Shown: piece after piece, positions 3,867-32,000 of the stretch
Position numbering within the stretch: position 1 is the first letter of the stretch
How the letters are laid out: each line of letters opens with the position of its first letter
NCBI RefSeq assembly: GCF_900289195.1
Contig: NZ_OMOH01000002.1
Location: forward strand, 345,982-377,981
DNA from: Propionibacterium ruminifibrarum
GTDB lineage: Bacteria; Actinomycetota; Actinomycetes; Propionibacteriales; Propionibacteriaceae
Length of the DNA: 32,000 nucleotides
Direction of reading: 5' to 3'
Made by a program: the position numbers and the translations under genes
The notes under the pieces: model-generated
Databases searched by the model: none
What the model was told of the DNA's origin: nothing
Seen by the model: only the letters and a program-made list of their open reading frames with translations

Positions 3867-6730
3867 CACGCGTCCCTTTCCTTCTCGACCATCTCGTAGG
3901 TCTCGACCTGGTCCCCGATCTGGATGTCGGAGTAGCCAAGCGTGAGACCGCACTCGAAGCCCTCACGGACCTCTGTGACGTCGTCCTTCTCACGGCGCAG
4001 CGAGTTGATCGAGGTCTCGGCGAGGACGACGCCGTCGCGCACCAGGCGCGCCTTGGCGTTGCGCCTGATGAGACCGTCGAGCACCATGCACCCGGCGATG
4101 TTGCCGACCTTGGACGAGCGGAAGATCTCGCGGATCTCGGCGGTGCCGAGCGTCTTCTCCTCGTAGACGGGCTTGAGCATGCCCTTGAGGGCGGACTCGA
4201 TCTCGTCGATGGCGTCGTAGATGACCGTGTAGTAACGGACGTCGACGTTGTTCTGGTCGGCCATGCGCGCGGCCTGGACGGTCGGGCGCACGTTGAAGCC
4301 GATGATGACGGCGTGCGGCTCGGATGCGGCGGCCAGCGTGACATTCGTCTCGGTGATGGCGCCGACACCACGATCGATGACGCGCAGGTCGACCTCGTCG
4401 CCCACGTCGATCTGGCTGAGCGAGTCCTCCAGCGCCTCGACCGAGCCGGCCGAGTCGCCCTTGAGGATGAGCAGCAGCTCGTTGGTCTCGCCCTTCTCCA
4501 TCTGCTCGAACAGTTCGTCGAGCGTCCGGCGGCGGCTCGACGCCGCCTGCTGGGCCGCACGGATGCGGGCCTCGCGCTTCTCGGCGATCTGGCGGGCCAT
4601 CCGGTCGTCCTCGACGACCAGGAAGTTGTCGCCGGCTCCCGGAATGTTGGTCAGGCCCAGCACCTGGACGGGCGTCGAGGGGGACGCCTCGTCGACCTGT
4701 TCGCCATGGTCGTTGACCAGGGCCCGCACCCGGCCGTACGCGGACCCGGCGACGATCGAGTCGCCCTTGCGCAGGGTGCCGCGCTGGACGAGGGCGGTGG
4801 CGACGGGGCCACGGCCCTTGTCGAGGTGGGCCTCGATGGCGACGCCCTGAGCGGCCATGTCGGGATTCGCCCGCAGGTCCAGGGCCGCGTCGGCGGTCAG
4901 GATGATGGCCTGCAGCAGGTCGTCGAGCCCCTGGCCGGTGACGGCGGAGACGTCGACGAACATGGTGTCGCCGCCGTACTCCTCGGGCACCAGGTCGAAC
5001 TCGGTCAGCTGGCCACGCACCTTGGTGGGGTCGGCGCCGGGCTTGTCGATCTTGTTCACCGCGACGACGATCGGCACGTCGGCGGCCTTCGCGTGGTTGA
5101 GGGCCTCGATGGTCTGCGGCATGACACCGTCATCGGCCGCGACGACGAGCACCGCGATGTCGGTGGACTTCGCGCCGCGGGCACGCATGGCGGTGAAGGC
5201 CTCGTGACCCGGGGTGTCGATGAAGGTGATGCGGCGATCCTCGTCGTCGACCTCGGCCTGCACCTGGTAGGCGCCGATCGACTGGGTGATGCCGCCGGCC
5301 TCGCCCTCGACCACGTGGGTGTGACGCAGCGCGTCGAGCAGCTTGGTCTTGCCGTGGTCGACGTGACCCATGACGGTGACGACCGGGGGGCGCGGGGCGA
5401 GATCGGACTCGTCACCGGCGTCCTCACCGAACTCCAAGTCGAAGCTCTCGAGGAGCTCCCGGTCCTCGTCCTCGGGGGAGACCACGTCGATGGTGTAGTT
5501 CAGTTCGGCGCCGAGGACCTCGAGGGTCTCGTCCGGCACGGACTGGGTGGCGGTGATCATCTCGCCCAGGTTGAACAGGACCTGCACCAGGGCGGCCGGG
5601 TCCGCGCCGATCTTCTCGGCGAGATCGGTCAGCGAGGAGCCGCGGCGCAGCCGAATGGTTTCGCCGTTGCCCTGCCTGATGCGCACGCCGCCGATCGTCG
5701 GCGCCTGCATCTCGTCGAACTCTTGCCTGCGCTGCTTGCGGCTCTTGCGGCCACGACGGCTACCGCCGCCCCGTCCGAAGGCACCCTGGGTGCCCGAACC
5801 GCCACGGCCGCCGCGTCCACCGCGGCCGCCGCCGAGAGGCGCACCCATGCCGGGCCCGCCGCGGAAACCACCGCCGCGGCCGGGACCACTGCTGCCACGC
5901 CCGCGGCCGCCGCCACGGGCCGGGCGACTGCCGGCGGGAGCTAGCTGGGAGTTGTGTCGCTTGGGCATCATCGCCGGGTTGGGGCGAGGCATGCCGGAGG
6001 TGCCGCCGGGACGGGGCAGACCCCCCGTGGGCCCCGGGCGAGGTGCACGCGACCTGGCCCCCTCGGCGGGCCGGCCCTGCTGCCCCTGCCCCCGGCGCTG
6101 CTGCCCCATGCCCTGGGAGGAGCTGTACGGGTTGTTGCCGGGGCGCGGGGCACCGGTACGGCGGCCACGGCTGGTGGGCAGGCCGCCGGTGGCGCCCGGC
6201 CGGGAACCCGACGGACGGGGACCGGGGCGTGGCCCCGGACGTGCGGACGGTGCGCCGCCGGAACGCTGCTGGCTCGGCGCCGAGGGCCGCGGGCCCGGAG
6301 TGGGACGGCCGCCGGGTCGGGCCGGGGCGCCCGGACGCGGGGTCGGCGAGGAGACCGGGGCCGACTCGGCGGCCGGTGCCGGTGCCTTCGGGATCGGTGT
6401 CTGGCCGGGCTTGGGGGCGGCACCGGGCTTGGGCGCCCCCGGGGTCGCCGCGGGCTTCGCCGGACCGGGGCGCGCCGCAGGGGCGGACGAGCCAACCGTC
6501 GGCGCGGACGAACGCGAGGCCTTCGATGCCGGCGCGGGCTTGGCTGCGGGCGATGAATCGCCCCCGGCGCTCTCGGACTTGACCTTCTCGGTCACCCTGC
6601 GCACCACGGGGGCTTCAATGGTTGACGAAGCGGAACGAACGAACTCGCCCATGTCCTTCAGCTTCGCCAGAAGTTCTTTGCTTTCGAGTCCGAGCTCCTT
6701 GGCGAGCTCGTAGACGCGGACCTTGGCCAC
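3866..6730 (-). CDS. infB: Translation initiation factor IF-2 (954 aa) with a long Pro/Gly/Arg-rich N-terminal region
   Basis: [15 protein letters not shown]-terminus; G domain [32 protein letters not shown] start at 6730 preceded by GAAGGAG. Confidence 0.97.
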
Positions 6731-25112: not shown

Positions 25113-25149
25113 CAGGGGCCCCACCCGGGTGTTCCGGATGGGGCCCCTG
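25113..25149 (-). terminator. GC hairpin downstream of tsf (putative terminator/attenuator before pyrH)
   Basis: Perfect 11-bp stem: CAGGGGCCCCA (25113-25123) pairs with TGGGGCCCCTG (25139-25149), with a 15-nt loop. There is no clear T tract. Confidence 0.4.
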
Positions 25150-25179
25150 CAGGCCGTCGGCGGACGGTTCTCGGTGGGC

Positions 25180-25992
25180 TCAGGCGGCCGCCGCGAAGCG
25201 CACGAAACGCGTCACCGTAACGCCGTGCTCGGCGGCCAGGGCGCCGACCGTCTTCTTGTCGTCGGCGACGCTGGCCTGCTCGAGCAGGCAGACGTCCTTG
25301 TAGAAGGCGTTGACGCGGCCCTCGACGATGCGCGGGATGATCTTCTCGGGCTTGCCCTCCTCCTTGGCGGTCTCCTCGGCGATGCGCTGCTCCTTGGCGA
25401 GCACGTCGGCGGGCACGTCCTCGCGGGCGAGGTACTGGGGGCTCATCGAGGCGATCTGCAGGGCGACCGAGTGGACGAATTCGGCGTCATCGCCCTCGTA
25501 GGAGACGACCACGCCGACCTGCGGGGGCAGGTCGGGGTTGCGCTTGTGCAGGTAGACGTCGATGGAGCCGGGGAGGTAGGCGGCGTCGGCCAGTTCGATC
25601 TTCTCGCCGATCTTGGCGGCGATCTCGGCCACGGCCTCGCTGACGGTCCGCCCGTCGGCGAGCGTGGCCTGCAGGGCGGCCTCCTTGCCGTCGGCCCCGG
25701 CGGCGTCGACGGCCTTCGCGATGGCCTCGCCGAGCTCGATGAACTCGGCGTTCTTGGCGACGAAGTCGGTCTCGGAGCCGAGGTGGATCAGGGCATTGCC
25801 GGAGGAGGCGACCAGGCCATTGGCGGCCTCGCGGTCGGCGCGCTTGGCGGCCTTGGCGGCGCCACTCACGCGCAGGATCTCGACGGCCTTCTCGAAGTCG
25901 CCGTCGGCCTCGGTGAGGGCCTTCTTGGCGTCCATCATGCCGGCGCCGGTGGCGTCGCGCAGCTTCTTCACATCAGCGGCTGTGATTGCCAT
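25180..25992 (-). CDS. tsf: Elongation factor Ts, 270 aa
   Basis: Contains [26 protein letters not shown] (UBA-like N-terminus) and [11 protein letters not shown]. Only the last 270 codons of the 1086-aa track ORF are genuine. Confidence 0.96.
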
Positions 25993-26021
25993 GTGGGTAT
26001 CCGTTCTCAGAAGTTCGTGGG

Positions 26022-26879
26022 TCACTCGGGATTGGGGGCCTCGGCCGCGGCCTCGGCGACCTCCGCGTTCAGCCGGCCGGCCTCGGGGTCGGTCTGTTCG
26101 GTCTGCTCGGCCTGGTCGCCGGACTCGAGGAGTTCCTTCTCCCACTCGGCCATGGGCTCGGCGGCGGCACCGGCCTGGGCCTGGGCGTCGGAGCGGGCCA
26201 GCAGGCCCTCGGCGCAGGCGTCGGCGATGATGCGCGTGAGCAGGGAGACCGAGCGGATGGCGTCGTCGTTGCCGGGGATCGGGTGGTCGACCTCGTCGGG
26301 ATCGCAGTTGGTGTCGAGGATGGCCACGACGGGGATGCGCAGCTTGCGGGCCTCGTCGATGGCCAGGTGCTCCTTCTTCGTGTCGACGATCCACACGGCC
26401 TGCGGGGTCCTGGCCATGTCGCGGATGCCGCCGAGGGACTTGGTCAGCTTCTCCTTCTCGCGGGAGAAGCCGAGCAGCTCCTTCTTGGTGAATCCGCCGG
26501 GCTGGACGGTCTCGAGGTCCATGGCCTCCAGTTCCTTGAGGCGGGCGATGCGCTTGCTGATGGTCTGGAAGTTGGTGAGCATGCCGCCGAGCCAGCGCTG
26601 GTTGACGAAGGGCATGCCGACGCGCAGCGCCTGCTCCTCGATCGACTCCTGGGCCTGCTTCTTCGTGCCGACGAAGAGAACCTGGCCGCCCTTGGCGACG
26701 GTCTCCTTGACGAAGGTGTAGGCGCTGTCGATGTAGGTCAGGGACTGGCGCAGGTCGATGATGTAGATGCCGTTGCGCTCGTTGAAGATGAAGCGCTTCA
26801 TCTTCGGGTTCCAGCGGCGGGTCTGGTGCCCGAAGTGGACACCGCTCTCCAGCAGCTGGCGTGTCGTGACGACGGCCAT
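26022..26879 (-). CDS. rpsB: 30S ribosomal protein S2 with acidic C-terminal extension, 285 aa
   Basis: Contains [27 protein letters not shown]. The ATG at 26879 is preceded by AAAGGAGA. The upstream 44 codons of the track ORF were rejected. Confidence 0.96.
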
Positions 26880-27423
26880 TGCCGTCTCCTTTCGTGGTTG
26901 TCGGACGCGGTTGCCCGCTTCCCCTGATGCGCTCGCCCCGGCACCTCGGGCCTGACGCCCTCGGACCACACCGGGAACCGCGGCCGCGTGGTCGCGACCG
27001 TTTCCGCGCATGCGAAGTCAGCCCGCCCGTGCGGACTGCGCCGATCAGTCTACGTTGCCCGGCGCACCGGGGGAAATCGGTGACCCGCCGAGGCGCCCAC
27101 CGGTTCCGCCCGGCGGCAGGACCCCCGCGTCGGGCCCGTGGTTCACCGCAGGACCAGGGCCCGGATGCTCCCTGGCACCGTGGGGCCGTGGTGCGGGCCC
27201 TCCCGGGTGCGGACGCGGACGGGGTGCGATCCTCCGCGCCGTCGAGGTGCGGGGCGAGCCCTCCCGCGCGAGCGGGAAACGGAACAACGCCCTGGACGGG
27301 CCGACGGCCCCGCGGAGTCGCCCCGGGCGCGGGCGGGGTTTCCCCCGGCTGCGTCCGGGTCGGAGTTCTCCACAGGCCGCGGCAGGGGCGTGCAACCGGG
27401 CCTGGCGCGCACACACTCCAGTC

Positions 27424-28494
27424 ATGACGAGCACACCTGGCACCTGGAACGACGACGCGCGTGCCGCCTGGCCCGGAGCGGCACGGCACGCCCACCGGCG
27501 GGCCGCGGTTTCGCGGGGGCGGTTCGCGCGCCTGGCCCGGGGCTTCCTCGTGCTGCTGCAGTGTCTCGTCGTGCTCGCCGCCGCCTCGGGCGGCACGGCC
27601 AGGGCCGACGGCACGCGCGTCATCCCGATCGACGGCCCGGTGCTGCGCGGCTTCGACCCGCCGGCCGAGAAGTGGCTGGCCGGTCACCGCGGTGTCGACC
27701 TGGGCGGCATCGACGGCGACGTCGTGCACGCGGCGGCCGACGGCACGGTCACCTTCGTCGGGACGATCGACGGCGTGCAGATGCTCACCGTCACCCACGC
27801 AGGTGGCCTGCGCACCACCTACCAGCCGGTGGCGGCCACCGTCGCCCGGGGCGACCGCGTCATGGCGGGCCAGCAGATCGGCACGCTGCTCACGGGGCAC
27901 TGCCCCGGGCAGGCCTGCCTGCACCTGGGGCTCAAGCGAGGCGACGAGTACCTCGACCCCCTCGCCTGGATCAACCGTGACAAGGGCACCGGCGACGTCA
28001 GCCTGCTGCCCTCGGACGCCGCGGTGCACCAGGTGCTGCCGTCGTGGTGGGTGGAGCGGCTTCGCCGGGCGGCCGCCGACTCGAACGCGAAGGCCCCGGG
28101 CTGGCCCGCCGACGGGCCCGTCACCTCGCCGTTCTCGAATCGGATCAACCCGATCCTCGGCACCTACGAGCTGCACGACGGGCTCGACATCGGCGCCTCG
28201 TGCGGTTCCCCGGTGCGAGCGGCCTGGTCGGGCACGGTCACCTACGCGGCGCCGATGCAGGGCTTCGGCAACCGGGTCGAGGTCGACCACGGCACGATGG
28301 AGGGCCGGCACCGCTCCAGCTCCTACAACCACCTCGCCGACGAGAGCATCGGCTTGGTGCGGGTGGGCGACCACGTCGAGGCCGGCCAGGTGATCGCCTA
28401 CGTCGGCACGACGGGCCTGTCCACCGGCTGCCACCTGCACTTCTCGGTCTACCTGGACGGCACGGCCGTCGATCCCGCGCCGTACCTGCCGTGA
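27424..28494 (+). CDS. Secreted/anchored peptidoglycan endopeptidase with two M23 (LytM) domains, 356 aa
   Basis: Signal/anchor [21 protein letters not shown]. Domain 1 has HRGVD but a degenerate second motif (CLHLG). Domain 2 is canonical (HDGLDIG ... GCHLHFSV). It is divergent from rpsB, as in other actinobacteria. Confidence 0.88.
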
Positions 28495-28500
28495 CCGGGC
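28490..28500. repeat. Left copy of the 11-bp direct repeat CGTGACCGGGC flanking the toxin/immunity cassette
   Basis: Exact match to 29292-29302. It contains the TGA stop of the M23 gene. Confidence 0.7.
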
Positions 28501-29031
28501 GTGCCGCCAGAACCCGGGCCCCGCCCGAAGAGACCCCGAGCGGGACGGGGCGCGCGTCCGCCTGCCGCCAAGACCGGCTCACCGTCCCGGCGGGGACCCG
28601 CCTCGAGCGGGGACGGCCCGGTGTACGTCACGTCCGACGGACACCGGCTGCCCTTCGGCCCGGCCGATGTGCAGGGTCTGGACGAGGCGAGGGAGCACGT
28701 CGTCGAGGGCAGTATCCGACGCAACGGCAGGCGCACCGGAGGCCACCTGTACACCACCGTCGAGGCCGAGATGAGAGAAGGCCAGATCGCCTTCCCGAAG
28801 GACTGGGACGCCGACCGCATCATGGCGGCGGCCCGGCAGGTGATCGACCGGCCCGAGAATGTGTTGTTTCAAGGCGAACACCGGATCGAGCTCAGCTCCA
28901 CGATTGGTGGGGTCAGGCTGGTCGTCCGCCTCCGCTTGCCGAAGAACGGCCCTGCTGTCGTCACCGTCTTCCCCACAAGGGGCGTCGGAGTGAAGAGGGT
29001 TCACAATGGCAGACTCCGAGACGTAGGCTGA
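28501..29031 (+). CDS. Bacterial EndoU-nuclease-like (EndoU_bacteria-type) toxin domain protein with Pro/Arg-rich N-terminal tail; start uncertain (GTG 28501 or GTG 28621)
   Basis: The pattern EHVVEG-x8-TGGH ... [24 protein letters not shown] ... [26 protein letters not shown] matches my recollection of the H..G...GGH / FP..W....I / ...TafP layout of polymorphic-toxin EndoU C-terminal domains. GC3 is lower than in neighbours (AAT GTG TTG TTT CAA; ACG ATT GGT; GTT CAC AAT GGC AGA). No HMM search was run. Confidence 0.6.
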
Positions 29032-29035
29032 CCAC

Positions 29036-29296
29036 ATGTCCACATCCGAGGAGCTACTCGCATTCGCCGACCGGGTCTTACCCGAACCGGCCAGCGAGGA
29101 TGTGCTCATCGTGCAGGACATCGCGATGAACGACGATGAGTCCATCGCCTATGGGGCTCTCGATCTTCTCGTGGCCGCCCGCGTCACGATCCCTGAGGAC
29201 CTGCTGCTGCGGGCCCTCGACGATTACTCGGACTCGTGGACCTTCGTCGAACTCGCCACCGAGGCGCTCGAGCGGCAGCGGCAGAACGTCGCGTGA
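29036..29296 (+). CDS. Small acidic protein, putative cognate immunity/antitoxin (86 aa)
   Basis: The ATG lies 4 nt after the toxin stop. The protein is strongly acidic (many D/E) and matches no family I recognise. The role is inferred from context only. Confidence 0.5.
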   Translation: MSTSEELLAFADRVLPEPASEDVLIVQDIAMNDDESIAYGALDLLVAARVTIPEDLLLRALDDYSDSWTFVELATEALERQRQNVA

Positions 29297-29302
29297 CCGG
29301 GC
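29292..29302. repeat. Right copy of the 11-bp direct repeat CGTGACCGGGC
   Basis: Exact match to 28490-28500. It contains the TGA stop of the putative immunity gene and abuts the xerC stop (TCA at 29303-29305). Confidence 0.7.
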
Positions 29303-30232
29303 TCAGGCCCGCGGATGCGCCTGGTTGTAGGCGGCCCGCAGCCGCTCGTCACTGATGTGCGTGTAGATCTGGGTGGTCGCCAGCGAGGCGTGCCCGAGCA
29401 TCTCCTGCACGCTGCGCAGATCGGCGCCGCCCTCCAGCAGATGGGTCGCCATCGCGTGACGCAGCCCGTGCGGCCCGATGTCAGGGGCCTGCGGGATGGC
29501 CCGTAGCGCGGCGTGCACGACGCGGCGTACCACGGCCGGGTCGATCCGCCCGCCCCGCACGCCGAGGAACATCGCGTGGCCCGAGGCCGGCCGCGCCCAC
29601 TGGCCGCGCTGGGCTAGCCAGGCGTCCACGGCCGTCAGGGCGGGGGCCCCGAGCGGCACGACACGTTCCTTGTTGCCCTTGCCGAGCACGCGCGCCGTGC
29701 CCGAGCCGGCGTCGATGTCGCCGACGTCGAGGCCGCACAGCTCGCCGACGCGGATGCCCGAGCCGTAGAGCACCTCGAGGATCGCCACGTCGCGGGCGCC
29801 CTTCGGCCCCTCGGACTCGGCGGCGGCTGCTGCGGCGGCGTCCATGAGTTCGCGGGCATCGGCCTGGGTGATCGTCTGCGGCAACGCGCGCCCGACCTTG
29901 GGCGACTTGAGGCCGCCGGCCACGTCGGTCGGCACGATCCGGTTGTCCTTGGCCCAGGCGAAGAAGCCGCGGGCGGCGCCGGCGCGCCGGGCGAGGGTGG
30001 CCGATGCCGCGCCGTCGGCCTGCTGGGCGGCCAGCCAGCGCCGCAGGTCGGGTAGACCGACCTCGGCCAGGTCGGTGCGCCCTCGCCCGGCGAGGAAGCC
30101 GAGCAGGTCTGTGACGTCGCCCAGGTAAGCGCGTACCGTGTGCTCCGAGTAGCCGCGCTGCAGGCTCAGGTAGTCTCCGTAGCGCGCCACGACGGCGCCC
30201 CACGGATGCTGGTCGGCTGACGGTGTGCCCAC
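29303..30232 (-). CDS. xerC: Site-specific tyrosine recombinase XerC
   Basis: N-terminal SAM-like domain (YLSLQRGYSEHTVRAYLGDV). Catalytic region has ARD..ILEVLYGSGIRVGEL, HGLRHAMATHLL and LGHASLATTQIYTH. XerC versus XerD was assigned from synteny near rpsB. Confidence 0.85.
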   Translation of the reverse strand: MGTPSADQHPWGAVVARYGDYLSLQRGYSEHTVRAYLGDVTDLLGFLAGRGRTDLAEVGLPDLRRWLAAQQADGAASATLARRAGAARGFFAWAKDNRIVPTDVAGGLKSPKVGRALPQTITQADARELMDAAAAAAAESEGPKGARDVAILEVLYGSGIRVGELCGLDVGDIDAGSGTARVLGKGNKERVVPLGAPALTAVDAWLAQRGQWARPASGHAMFLGVRGGRIDPAVVRRVVHAALRAIPQAPDIGPHGLRHAMATHLLEGGADLRSVQEMLGHASLATTQIYTHISDERLRAAYNQAHPRA

Positions 30233-30306
30233 GAGCGTGAGTATAGGTTTGGTCAGTGCGGCGTCACGCGGCGTCGACGCGCGAGGCCATCGACCAGGAG
30301 GACCAG

Positions 30307-30927
30307 ATGAAAAGCCCAGCAGAGTGGGCCACCACCGGACGAGTTCTACGGATCACCCGCTGGGACGAGCCGGTGATGAGTTCCAGGACCCGCCCGGTCA
30401 CCGAGTTCAGCGAAGAACTGCACCAGCTGGTCGCCGACATGTTCCGGACGATGGCCGCGGCCGACGGAGTGGGGCTGGCCTCCCCGCAGGTCGACTCCGA
30501 TCTGTCGCTGTTCGTCTTCAACTGCCCCGACGAGTCCGGCCGCCTCGTCTACGGCGTCGTCTGCAATCCCGTCGTCACCCTGCCCGAGGGCAAGGACCGT
30601 CGCCTGGTGAGCGAGCAGGAGGGCTGCCTGTCGTGGCCGGGCGCCTACCAGCAGCTGGCCCGCCCCGACTTCGCCGTCTGCGAGGGCCAGGACGAGAACG
30701 GCGACCCGGTGCGCATCGAGGGCACCGGGCTGCTGGCCCGCTGCCTGCAGCACGAGACCGACCACCTGCAGGGCACCGTCTTCGGCGACCGGCTCTCGAA
30801 GCGCTCGCGCCGCCGCCTCGACGAGGAGAAGGAACGCCTCGCCCCCCTCTACCCGGACGACTGGCCGATCCACCCCAAGCGCACCGCCGGTGAGGTCGAC
30901 GGGGCTGGAGGGTCCGACCAGGGCTAA
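30307..30927 (+). CDS. def: Peptide deformylase, 206 aa
   Basis: Motifs GVGLASPQV, EGCLSWPG and QHETDHLQG. The ATG at 30307 is preceded by CAGGAGGA. The track start at 30256 was rejected. Confidence 0.93.
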   Translation: MKSPAEWATTGRVLRITRWDEPVMSSRTRPVTEFSEELHQLVADMFRTMAAADGVGLASPQVDSDLSLFVFNCPDESGRLVYGVVCNPVVTLPEGKDRRLVSEQEGCLSWPGAYQQLARPDFAVCEGQDENGDPVRIEGTGLLARCLQHETDHLQGTVFGDRLSKRSRRRLDEEKERLAPLYPDDWPIHPKRTAGEVDGAGGSDQG

Positions 30928-31622
30928 GAAGACCCAGCAACCCAGCGGCAGACCGCGGTCACACGCTGCCGCACGACACGGGGAGCCGGTTCGGCCACGC
31001 CACCGTTGCGCCAGCTGATGCACCCCAAAGGCAGAAGTGCCCCTCACCAGGTTCCTCGAGGCCTCCTTCGTATTCGTACTCGTCAGCAACCCCAGACGCG
31101 GGAAGTCCTTCCAGCAAGACAGCTGTCAAACAACGAGCCATGACCCTCGCCCAGCCGTACCAGCCCGTATGCCAAGCAGGGCGCGATGCAGCTCGTCAGA
31201 TCCGGTGTGGCAGCAATAATATTCCTTGATCAGTTAAAGCCTCATTCTTTTATCGGCAAAGGAGCCAGGTTTGAAGAATGACAGAGACAACTCTGTCGAG
31301 TCACATAGAAATTGGTGCATTGTCTTTTCGGTAACTATGTTCGGCGGGTCTCAGCCGTGCATTCCAGGCACACCTTGTCGGCCGTGCAAACCCAAGCTGA
31401 CGCCCAACAAGTCTTTGACTTGAGTTTCAGCTTTGGTCATACCCTGAGTGATGACCTGTTCGTCGCGGTGTTTGCCGAGCGGACCTGGGAGTTCGAAACT
31501 TAGCCCCAGTGCGGGCGAGTTTCGTCGCGTTCTGGTTCCCCGCATCCCCGGTGAGCACCGACTACATCCTCACGTCCTGTCAATCGGTCAACCATCCCCG
31601 GATGGTTTTCCCATTGCGCTCA

Positions 31623-31642
31623 ACTATTCAACACTATTCAAC
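31623..31642. repeat. Perfect tandem duplication of a 10-bp unit (ACTATTCAAC x2) in the low-GC region
   Basis: Read directly: ACTATTCAAC at 31623-31632 and again at 31633-31642. Confidence 0.9.
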
Positions 31643-31852
31643 GATGATACCCATGTCGGCGCCACGAGGAGCGTATAGAATGACTTCTACTTTCATCCAC
31701 GTCAGCATGTAAAACTATACGTTTCTTCTATCTGATCAGATCAGCAATTCACCAGGGCAATCTCAACCTATATGTTCCAATCATATCCGAAATGACATAT
31801 CGAATCCACTAAAACCGATTTTACCCATAATGACCATGGCTTCATGGCTAGC

Positions 31853-32000
31853 TGTTGTGGCGCATGAGGTTGTTGACGGTGTGGAGGTGGCGTAGGGGGC
31901 AGGCCCTCGACAGGATGGAAGTCGCTGAACTACCCGTCCGACCAAGGAGCCTGCCCTTGAGTACTCACGCTAACGCACCATTGACCGTTGAAGGCCGACA
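31853..32000 (+). mobile_element. Left end of an IS481-family insertion sequence (continues beyond the window)
   Basis: GC content jumps at about 31853. The element would start TGTTGTGG..., immediately after GCTAGC (31847-31852), the NCTAGN target typical of IS481. About 100 bp downstream, AAGGAG precedes a TTG-initiated ORF with an IS481-type transposase N-terminus. Confidence 0.55.
31957..32000 (+). CDS. IS481-family transposase, first ~14 codons only (truncated by the window end)
   Basis: The TTG at 31957 gives (M)STHANAPLTVEGR, resembling the conserved H-x-N-A-x-LT-x-x-GR start of IS481-family transposases. An AAGGAG SD lies at 31944-31949. Confidence 0.5.
   Translation, partial: MSTHANAPLTVEGR

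Follow-up and report, generated by a model that had tools for sequence, protein, structure and literature searches.

The locus considered here lies in a 32,000-nucleotide stretch of Propionibacterium ruminifibrarum DNA, actinobacterial in character and 71% GC, to which, at its full length, we refer as the window. Across the locus the gene order is rpsB (minus strand), a gene for an M23 peptidase (plus), an open reading frame (ORF) of 176 amino acids (plus), an ORF of 86 amino acids (plus), xerC (minus) and def (plus). The two ORFs between M23 and xerC, which we call the cassette, are our subject: a gene for a putative RNase toxin of the EndoU family, followed by a gene that probably encodes its immunity protein. 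The same cassette occupies the same M23–xerC site in P. australiense (five assemblies, L081–L085) and in the Propionibacterium metagenome-assembled genome L001. These are also the nearest public relatives of the window, P. australiense (XerC 93%, RpsB 97% identical) being closer than L001 (XerC 86–88%).

The 176-residue ORF (28501–29031) encodes a basic protein (pI 11.2) that matches the Pfam family EndoU_bacteria (PF14436) with an E value of 5.8e-10 and a score of 40.1 bits, against a gathering cut-off of 25.3, over profile positions 3–128 of 129. The same gene carries the NCBI annotation ‘EndoU domain-containing protein’. The predicted RNase domain comprises residues 41–176 of the 176 (28621–29031, plus strand). 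The putative catalytic residues are His66 (28696–28698) and His82 (28744–28746), the latter within a GGH motif, and a Phe-Pro motif stands at residues 157–158. Throughout a 32-member family alignment H, GGH, FP, W and P are conserved, GGH being invariant in 32/32; within the Propionibacterium clade His66 and His82 are invariant and F157–P158 (or H-P) is conserved. Two N-proximal histidines and a C-terminal strand bearing an aromatic or aliphatic residue followed by proline are hallmarks of the prokaryotic EndoU/RNase A-like toxins (PMC7297114). Since the Pfam score lies above the gathering threshold, and both the two N-proximal histidines and the C-terminal aromatic-Pro motif are conserved, we assign the protein to EndoU, as had been proposed by a first-pass annotation made from the sequence alone. 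The toxin has no match in NCBIfam, PADLOC or PHROGs. In alignment A8 (32 EndoU domains; window residues 92–96) the sequences of the Gln type, REGQIAFP, have Arg three residues upstream of the Gln, and those of the Lys type (VEGKIAFP, FEGKIAFP) have Val or Phe at that upstream position; the basic residue of the Lys position may have been relocated to the upstream Arg.

Where does the toxin gene begin? Two gene callers picked a shorter ORF of 136 amino acids from a GTG at 28621, which deserved consideration in view of the seeming lack of constraint on codons 1–40. P. australiense has no start there, nor any internal start, and the start at 28501, 6 nt past the M23 stop, is kept in the three carriers (GTG/ATG/GTG). 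The long ORF is for these reasons the more likely one, and the short one was set aside.

The second gene (29036–29296, plus strand) starts 4 nt past the toxin stop and encodes 86 amino acids of strongly acidic composition (19 D+E, 5 K+R, pI 4.05). Although it matches nothing in Pfam, NCBIfam, PADLOC or PHROGs, homologues stand directly after EndoU genes on a phage contig (L091, E 4e-34), at a phage locus (L093, E 8e-11) and at a free-standing locus (L097, E 1e-6), and small homologous ORFs follow EndoU in L091, L093, L095 and L097. The ORF of L091, 85 amino acids long, is 61% identical to that of the window. This recurrence supports the proposal, already made on first inspection from the acidity and spacing of the ORF, that it is the cognate partner of the EndoU gene. 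The L097 pair (L097:467-1157, GCA_977043125.1, 55% GC), a 138-residue EndoU of the same subfamily with an 87-residue immunity homologue, stands free: the genes after it, in an unrelated organism of lower GC, are ordinary ones of metabolism and regulation. Given this pair, orphan copies of EndoU and its immunity gene may be recurrent.

From what source does the pair come? Word-indexed searches of 5.8 billion proteins matched only three Propionibacterium clusters, and a further search of this kind with a profile added nothing to them; an exhaustive HMMER search of 1.84 billion representatives returned 33 relatives of the toxin. The best match outside the genus, P0124 (E 1.7e-60), and ten others are proteins of 312–474 amino acids with the EndoU domain at the C-terminus. 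Ten of the long relatives were scanned: eight carry the Pfam domain VG15 at the N-terminus and one carries Phage_Mu_F. P0124 lies in a phage module of 71% GC with the order HNH, terminase, SPP1-type portal, VG15–EndoU, an 85-residue ORF 4 nt downstream, scaffold and major capsid, and the same layout surrounds P0125 in more than 24 contigs. VG15 itself matches 442 actinophage records, those of P. freudenreichii phages among them, many of which bear the annotation of a MuF-like minor capsid protein or an injected head protein; some of the VG15 proteins are fused to ADP-ribosyltransferases. The concept of the MuF toxin, its position directly after the portal gene and the presence of EndoU among its toxin domains were set out by Jamet et al. 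2017 (PMC5576092).

The first-pass annotation had found no delivery domain. This holds for the toxin ORF and for the 32-kb window, which contains no VG15, Rhs, CdiA or LXG gene, but not for the family, whose nearest relatives have the N-terminal VG15/MuF-like domain. That head-protein domain is a trafficking class outside those which the annotation had listed (LXG, WXG100, Rhs, CdiA and the markers of type VI and type VII secretion).

The homology between chromosome and phage begins at residue 245 of P0124 (window position 28597), directly past the sequence RYTDGV. The phages exchange toxins at precisely this point: L089 and L090, two IMG/VR phages with N-termini 77–78% identical, switch to a CdiA_C toxin after RYTDGV, where L091 carries EndoU. 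Thus the phage relatives join a conserved VG15 trafficking domain to alternative toxins at a fixed junction, which is the mark of a polymorphic toxin, and because the homology starts at the EndoU/CdiA_C switch point, the chromosomal cassette corresponds to the exchangeable unit of such a toxin, its C-terminal toxin region (CT) and the immunity gene. The unit is compositionally foreign to the phage too, as expected for a horizontally shuffled module. Within L091:6436-7132 the GC content at third codon positions (GC3) of the EndoU CT and immunity gene is 0.75 and 0.72, compared with 0.91–0.98 in the VG15 N-terminal part and the other phage genes.

The cassette is a mosaic. Between the window and L001, nucleotide identity falls to 40–67% over a hypervariable block (28852–29181, plus strand) that covers toxin residues ~118–176 and immunity residues ~1–49; the flanks are 90–97% identical, the edges are sharp, and the synonymous divergence (dS) of the block exceeds 1, against 0.2–0.37. 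Besides the allele of the window and P. australiense and that of L001, phage L091 has a third allele of this block, 40–77% identical, between two conserved anchors. The first anchor, inside the toxin gene (28747–28836, plus strand), is 90–100% identical to L091 at the nucleotide level, with 30 nt identical; the second, in the C-terminal half of the immunity gene (TIPEDLLLRALDEYSDSWTFVELA; 29197–29256, plus strand), is 87–97% identical, and its peptide is the same in chromosome and phage. The C-terminal half of the toxin and the N-terminal half of the immunity protein vary jointly; the toxin leader is separately divergent in P. australiense. Such a pattern suggests that alleles have been replaced repeatedly, by homologous recombination through the conserved anchors, and it predicts that the two jointly varying halves form the specificity interface.

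Both cassette genes are under purifying selection (ω, the ratio of nonsynonymous to synonymous change, 0.07–0.30). For toxin codons 41–117, where changes are biased to third positions, ω is 0.22–0.30, and for the immunity gene 0.07–0.19; M23 and xerC give 0.13–0.32. Neither cassette gene has suffered a frameshift or stop in three species diverged by dS 0.2–0.37. The dS of the toxin core (0.23–0.33) equals that of M23 and xerC (0.20–0.37), which fits one ancient acquisition followed by vertical descent; the cassette has been inherited across at least three Propionibacterium species. Its composition still sets it apart. GC3 is 0.825 and 0.828 in the two genes, some 3.5 standard deviations below the mean of 0.919 (s.d. 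0.027, minimum 0.86) of the 21 other ORFs of the window, which bears out an impression already recorded from the codons.

If the cassette was acquired, what does the site look like where it is missing? In other genera of the Propionibacteriaceae (L002, L004, L009) M23 and xerC converge with 4–11 nt between their stops and no cassette, and P. freudenreichii, with a gap of 43 nt, likewise has no cassette. A metagenome scan with the left-junction sequence yielded two further Propionibacterium lineages, L108 (9416–9721) and L110 (12724–13005), that have neither EndoU domain nor immunity gene. In each, the M23 stop, the start codon and ~140 nt of the leader remain, after which the sequence jumps to the DNA just ahead of xerC, at the end of the spacer described below. 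We considered whether they preserve the state before insertion. The join lies in a CGCCG microhomology, and ~14 degenerate codons of the conserved Y-x3-D-G region of the toxin remain; we read them as a deletion scar instead.

The junction has also received other DNA. L088 (Logan SRR33694709 contig), from a Propionibacterium lineage about as distant as L001 (M23 82%, XerC 86% to the window), holds there a 2.3-kb cargo (L088:1757-4062) of a CMD-family protein, a MerR regulator and an α/β-hydrolase. The M23–xerC junction is a recurrent insertion point. In L088, L108 and L110 the 3′ end of xerC, including its stop, is duplicated beside itself: three 25-nt copies with a 61-nt period in L088 (3928–4074), and two ~29-nt copies ~130 nt apart in each of L108 (9380–9790, minus strand; offsets 236–264 and 366–394) and L110 (12690–13070, minus strand; offsets 208–236 and 338–366). 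Such duplications might be the trace of an attachment site, or of slippage that recurred at the end of xerC.

The sequences show directly the homology, the synteny, the purifying selection that acts on the two genes and the replacement of alleles of the block between anchors common to phage DNA. On these grounds we consider it probable (about 0.65) that 28501–29296 is an orphan toxin-CT/immunity module derived from the C-terminal toxin and immunity gene of a phage head protein of the MuF type (VG15). Transfer from phage to chromosome would be the parsimonious direction. By analogy with SPP1 gp7, and as the MuF-toxin hypothesis has it, the N-terminal domain of the phage protein presumably serves to pack it into the capsid, from which it would pass into cells along with the DNA. 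In the chromosome, the copy begins in the basic linker just ahead of the toxin domain and so lacks a domain for packaging or delivery. Capture between M23 and xerC would have occurred in the ancestor of a Propionibacterium subclade, with vertical inheritance thereafter. The 176-residue product is predicted to be a metal-independent endoribonuclease of the EndoU type using His66 and His82, and the 86-residue acidic protein is predicted to bind it tightly and block it. As the toxin start lies so close behind the M23 stop, the toxin ORF is probably co-transcribed and translationally coupled with M23; a scan for promoters and terminators found none inside the cassette.

What might such a module do for its host? 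A protein that has no head-protein domain can be neither packaged nor delivered, so the value for which the module is maintained is most plausibly that of the immunity gene. Selection would then act chiefly for protection from the EndoU toxins that related phages bring in or express. The toxin linked to it would be an addiction partner, preventing loss of the pair, and a substrate for recombination with phage alleles.

Several observations weigh against the phage-derived reading. The VG15 part of P0124, compared with the 32-kb window by tblastn, finds no match, and the window has no full-length VG15 toxin; nor did searches of GenBank phages (tblastn) and IMG/VR bring up a close EndoU or immunity homologue. 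The close phage allele occurs in one contig only (L091), whose host is inferred just from its 71% GC and sequence identity. The cassette is dispensable, having been lost in L108 and L110. The Gly-Lys(-Thr) that precedes FP, frequent in the wider family, is Gly-Gln-Ile in the clade of the window, phage members included. Nor did structure bring confirmation: the AlphaFold2 model of the toxin (mean predicted local distance difference test, pLDDT, 66; predicted template-modelling score 0.63) is poor over residues 21–50, with pLDDT <50 over the His region, and this weak model found no significant Foldseek match in the PDB (best E 0.047). PDB sequence searches with profiles of 3 and 32 sequences gave nothing, or spurious matches to beta-propeller repeats.

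Might the pair instead be a free-standing type II toxin–antitoxin or abortive-infection module, in which stress or phage infection removes a labile acidic antitoxin and so frees EndoU to arrest the cell? The first-pass annotation had left the choice between this and an orphan polymorphic-toxin module open; our results favour the latter, and we rate the former as rather unlikely. In its favour, neither gene is disrupted and purifying selection acts on both, the start codon of the toxin ORF is its own and is conserved, and L097 is another instance of an EndoU gene and immunity homologue standing alone among non-phage genes. The isolated domain of another MuF toxin is more toxic than the full-length protein (PMC10083569). 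Moreover, 22/33 family representatives are shorter than 250 amino acids, but fragments may account for many of these (P0128, for one, corresponds to the C-terminus of P0127). Neither protein matches a PADLOC model, the small one has no DNA-binding antitoxin domain and no Pfam or NCBIfam match, and the order of toxin before immunity gene, with swapping of alleles, is typical of polymorphic toxin systems.

Less probable still is that the pair is the decaying remnant of a phage gene fragment, now devoid of function. It has no delivery domain, its leader evolves neutrally, the lineages of L108 and L110 have lost it by deletion, and the lineage of the window has lost the spacer beside it. Decay is difficult to reconcile with ω values in the toxin core and immunity gene that are comparable with those of M23 and xerC, with reading frames that remain open in all three species, or with the retention of both histidines.

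The leader invites another question: is the toxin ever fused to M23? Codons 1–40 (28501–28620, plus strand) encode a Pro/Arg/Gly-rich segment of pI 12, in frame with M23 and unconstrained: its substitutions are spread evenly by codon position (15/13/16 and 7/6/4), with ω of 0.65–1.9. A similar basic linker is present in the phage toxins (PRPKR in P0125), and we interpret the leader as a disordered linker of this kind that came with the phage protein. Were the M23 stop occasionally read through, over TGA-CCG-GGC, the RNase would be attached to a secreted cell-wall hydrolase serving as delivery domain. Positions 28492 and 28501 do lie in one frame, in all three carriers and despite a 6-nt indel in the leader, and the stop is UGA followed by C, a weak termination context. 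But placement in frame has a prior of 1 in 3, the M23 stop stands at the ancestral C-terminus, as in P. freudenreichii, and the start codon at 28501 is conserved. None of the 10 longest of the 33 family representatives scanned is an M23–EndoU fusion, and we regard readthrough as very improbable.

There remains the repeat at the edges of the cassette. The 11-bp sequence CGTGACCGGGC occurs exactly two times in the window, at 28490–28500 and 29292–29302, and each copy holds a TGA stop, that of M23 (28492–28494) on the left and that of the 86-residue ORF (29294–29296) on the right. Excision of one copy with the interval would yield TGA-CCGGGC-TCA. These facts, first pointed out in the annotation, are confirmed in the sequence; its reading of them, a clean insertion with target-site duplication, is not. 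Pairs of 11-mers 300–1500 bp apart are common here (the window has 105, dinucleotide shuffles 52 ± 9), but the frequency with which two 30-nt windows specified beforehand have an 11-mer in common is only 7.8e-4, so the placement at two stop codons is not trivial.

The two ends have different histories. The left copy spans the M23 stop and the 6-nt gap to the toxin start; this junction is kept in all carriers, as CCGTGACCGGGC(G/A)TG in P. australiense and L001, and also in L108 and L110. At the right end P. australiense and L001 have CATGACCGTTC, which matches the repeat at 8/11 positions, and then a mutually homologous spacer of ~150 bp up to the xerC stop. Because the window groups with P. 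australiense (xerC 93%) rather than with L001 (88%), and both other carriers have the spacer, it must be ancestral and have been deleted in the lineage of the window. The perfect right-hand copy, present also in L092, arose with this deletion, which was accompanied by clustered changes in the 3′ end of the immunity gene that bring the right junction closer to the left one. Over 22 nt the right junction matches the left at 17/22 positions in the window and at ~10/22 in the ancestral-type right end of P. australiense (counted by hand on the alignment). Only the 6 bp TGACCG are common to both cassette ends in all carriers. Compared with the phage DNA downstream of the immunity gene, the P. freudenreichii intergenic region and the flanks of L088, the spacer shows no similarity.

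We conclude that the 11-bp repeat is real but secondary and lineage-specific. What stood of the first-pass reading is a foreign insert at a core-gene junction, since P. freudenreichii and other genera lack the cassette there; an empty site with a single copy of the repeat was not found, the empty sites reading TGA and 4–43 unrelated nt ahead of the xerC stop. The perfect 11-mer at both stops (~8e-4 per site by chance) and the shared TGACCG notwithstanding, we give almost no credence to a discrete mobile insertion bounded by a target-site duplication: in the cassette alignment P. australiense and L001 have the spacer in place of the right copy, no transposase or integrase and no terminal inverted repeat lie within the insert, and its dS, which matches that of the flanks, indicates old vertical inheritance. 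In practical terms, a perfect short direct repeat at the edges of an insert can be secondary and is no proof of an insertion mechanism.

The neighbours of the cassette are rpsB, tsf, M23, xerC and def, with no adjoining phage portal gene and no prophage. The M23 gene (27424–28494, plus strand; Pfam Peptidase_M23, E 2.6e-41, in two stretches) encodes a peptidoglycan metallopeptidase with two M23 domains; its start is uncertain (27010 or 27424), and its orthologues adjoin xerC in every Propionibacteriaceae locus examined. A 28-nt direct repeat (75%; 28422–28449 and 28734–28761) pairs the zinc site of M23 (TGCHLHFSV) with the GGH region of EndoU (TGGHLYTTV), reaching 94% over 16 nt in P. australiense; it is probably a coincidental likeness of two His motifs. 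The xerC gene (29303–30232, minus strand), convergent with the cassette, encodes a tyrosine recombinase (TIGR02224 XerC, E 2.6e-91) with Phage_integrase and SAM-like domains. Rfam and tRNA scans of the window found no matches.

L092, of the same species as the window, is 99% identical to it over 25126–30981; the identity stops at 30982, and 30982–32000 is of low GC (0.42–0.58) and has no long ORFs. A possible ORF starts there at TTG 31958 (LSTHANAPLTVEGR...) and may resemble the N-terminus of an IS481-type transposase. The stretch downstream of def differs among strains: there L092 has the polymorphic-toxin immunity gene Imm6 (6048–6530; PF14434, E 1.3e-15) with no adjacent toxin, and two P. 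australiense strains have two different CRISPR-Cas gene sets (L081:9046-12537; L083:8675-11546).

MuF-type phage toxins are widespread, and their role is still unsettled (PMC5576092, PMC10083569). It is possible, though we advance it only tentatively, that the host chromosome has domesticated a phage head protein's toxin tip, together with the antidote, and keeps them as a permanent defence against injected or expressed phage EndoU. If so, the hypervariable block, exchanged through the anchors, records an arms race between host and phage, captured immunity to injected phage toxins is a defence principle not in current defence catalogues, and the locus offers a direct handle on the role of MuF toxins during infection. 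The site is a natural experiment with four states: a chromosomal copy maintained by purifying selection while several species have existed, an empty site, a deletion scar (two lineages) and another cargo (one lineage). It makes testable whether host-encoded immunity alters infection by toxin-carrying phages, which surfaces of toxin and immunity protein set specificity, and whether a toxin domain stripped of its delivery can persist as an addiction or defence element.

How does the cassette compare with known systems? The MuF toxins of temperate phages (PMC5576092), which include MuF4-EndoU of Actinobacteria, are closely matched by P0124, P0125 and others, with their MuF-like/VG15 N-terminus, their position after the portal, a variable toxin and a small immunity ORF, and the two cassette genes correspond by homology to the CT and the immunity gene of such phage relatives. 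However, the ORF of the window has only a 40-residue leader, no MuF/VG15 domain and no surrounding prophage; it lies between core genes, is vertically inherited across species and has its own start codon. It is a derivative of the MuF toxins rather than a member. In the literature searched we found no description of orphan copies of MuF toxins, and the word ‘orphan’ is absent from PMC5576092.

The CdiA-CT of E. coli STECO31 with its CdiI (PDB 5HKQ; PMC9086364), an anticodon-loop tRNase, likewise combines an EndoU-family domain and two N-proximal histidines with a dedicated immunity protein. Unlike it, the domain of the window is much shorter (~135 amino acids) and shows no detectable sequence similarity to 5HKQ even with the 32-sequence profile; the immunity proteins are unrelated, and the active-site Lys/Thr (K261 of 5HKQ) could not be mapped onto the toxin.

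A parallel in organization is offered by the orphan cdiA-CT/cdiI and rhs-CT/rhsI modules, as these are summarized from Poole et al. 2011 in PMC5576092. There too a toxin CT and its cognate immunity gene are detached from the delivery domain, and conserved flanks allow recombination with full-length toxin genes; in the window, anchors 87–100% identical to phage L091 enclose the divergent block. On the same summary, the classical orphans stand in arrays just downstream of the full-length gene, whereas the copy in the window has a housekeeping junction to itself, and it is phages that carry its full-length partners. Each of the three kinds, EndoU toxins, MuF toxins and orphan modules, is known already; what is new is their combination, the CT/immunity unit of a MuF toxin at a core chromosomal junction, under selection and swapping alleles with phages.

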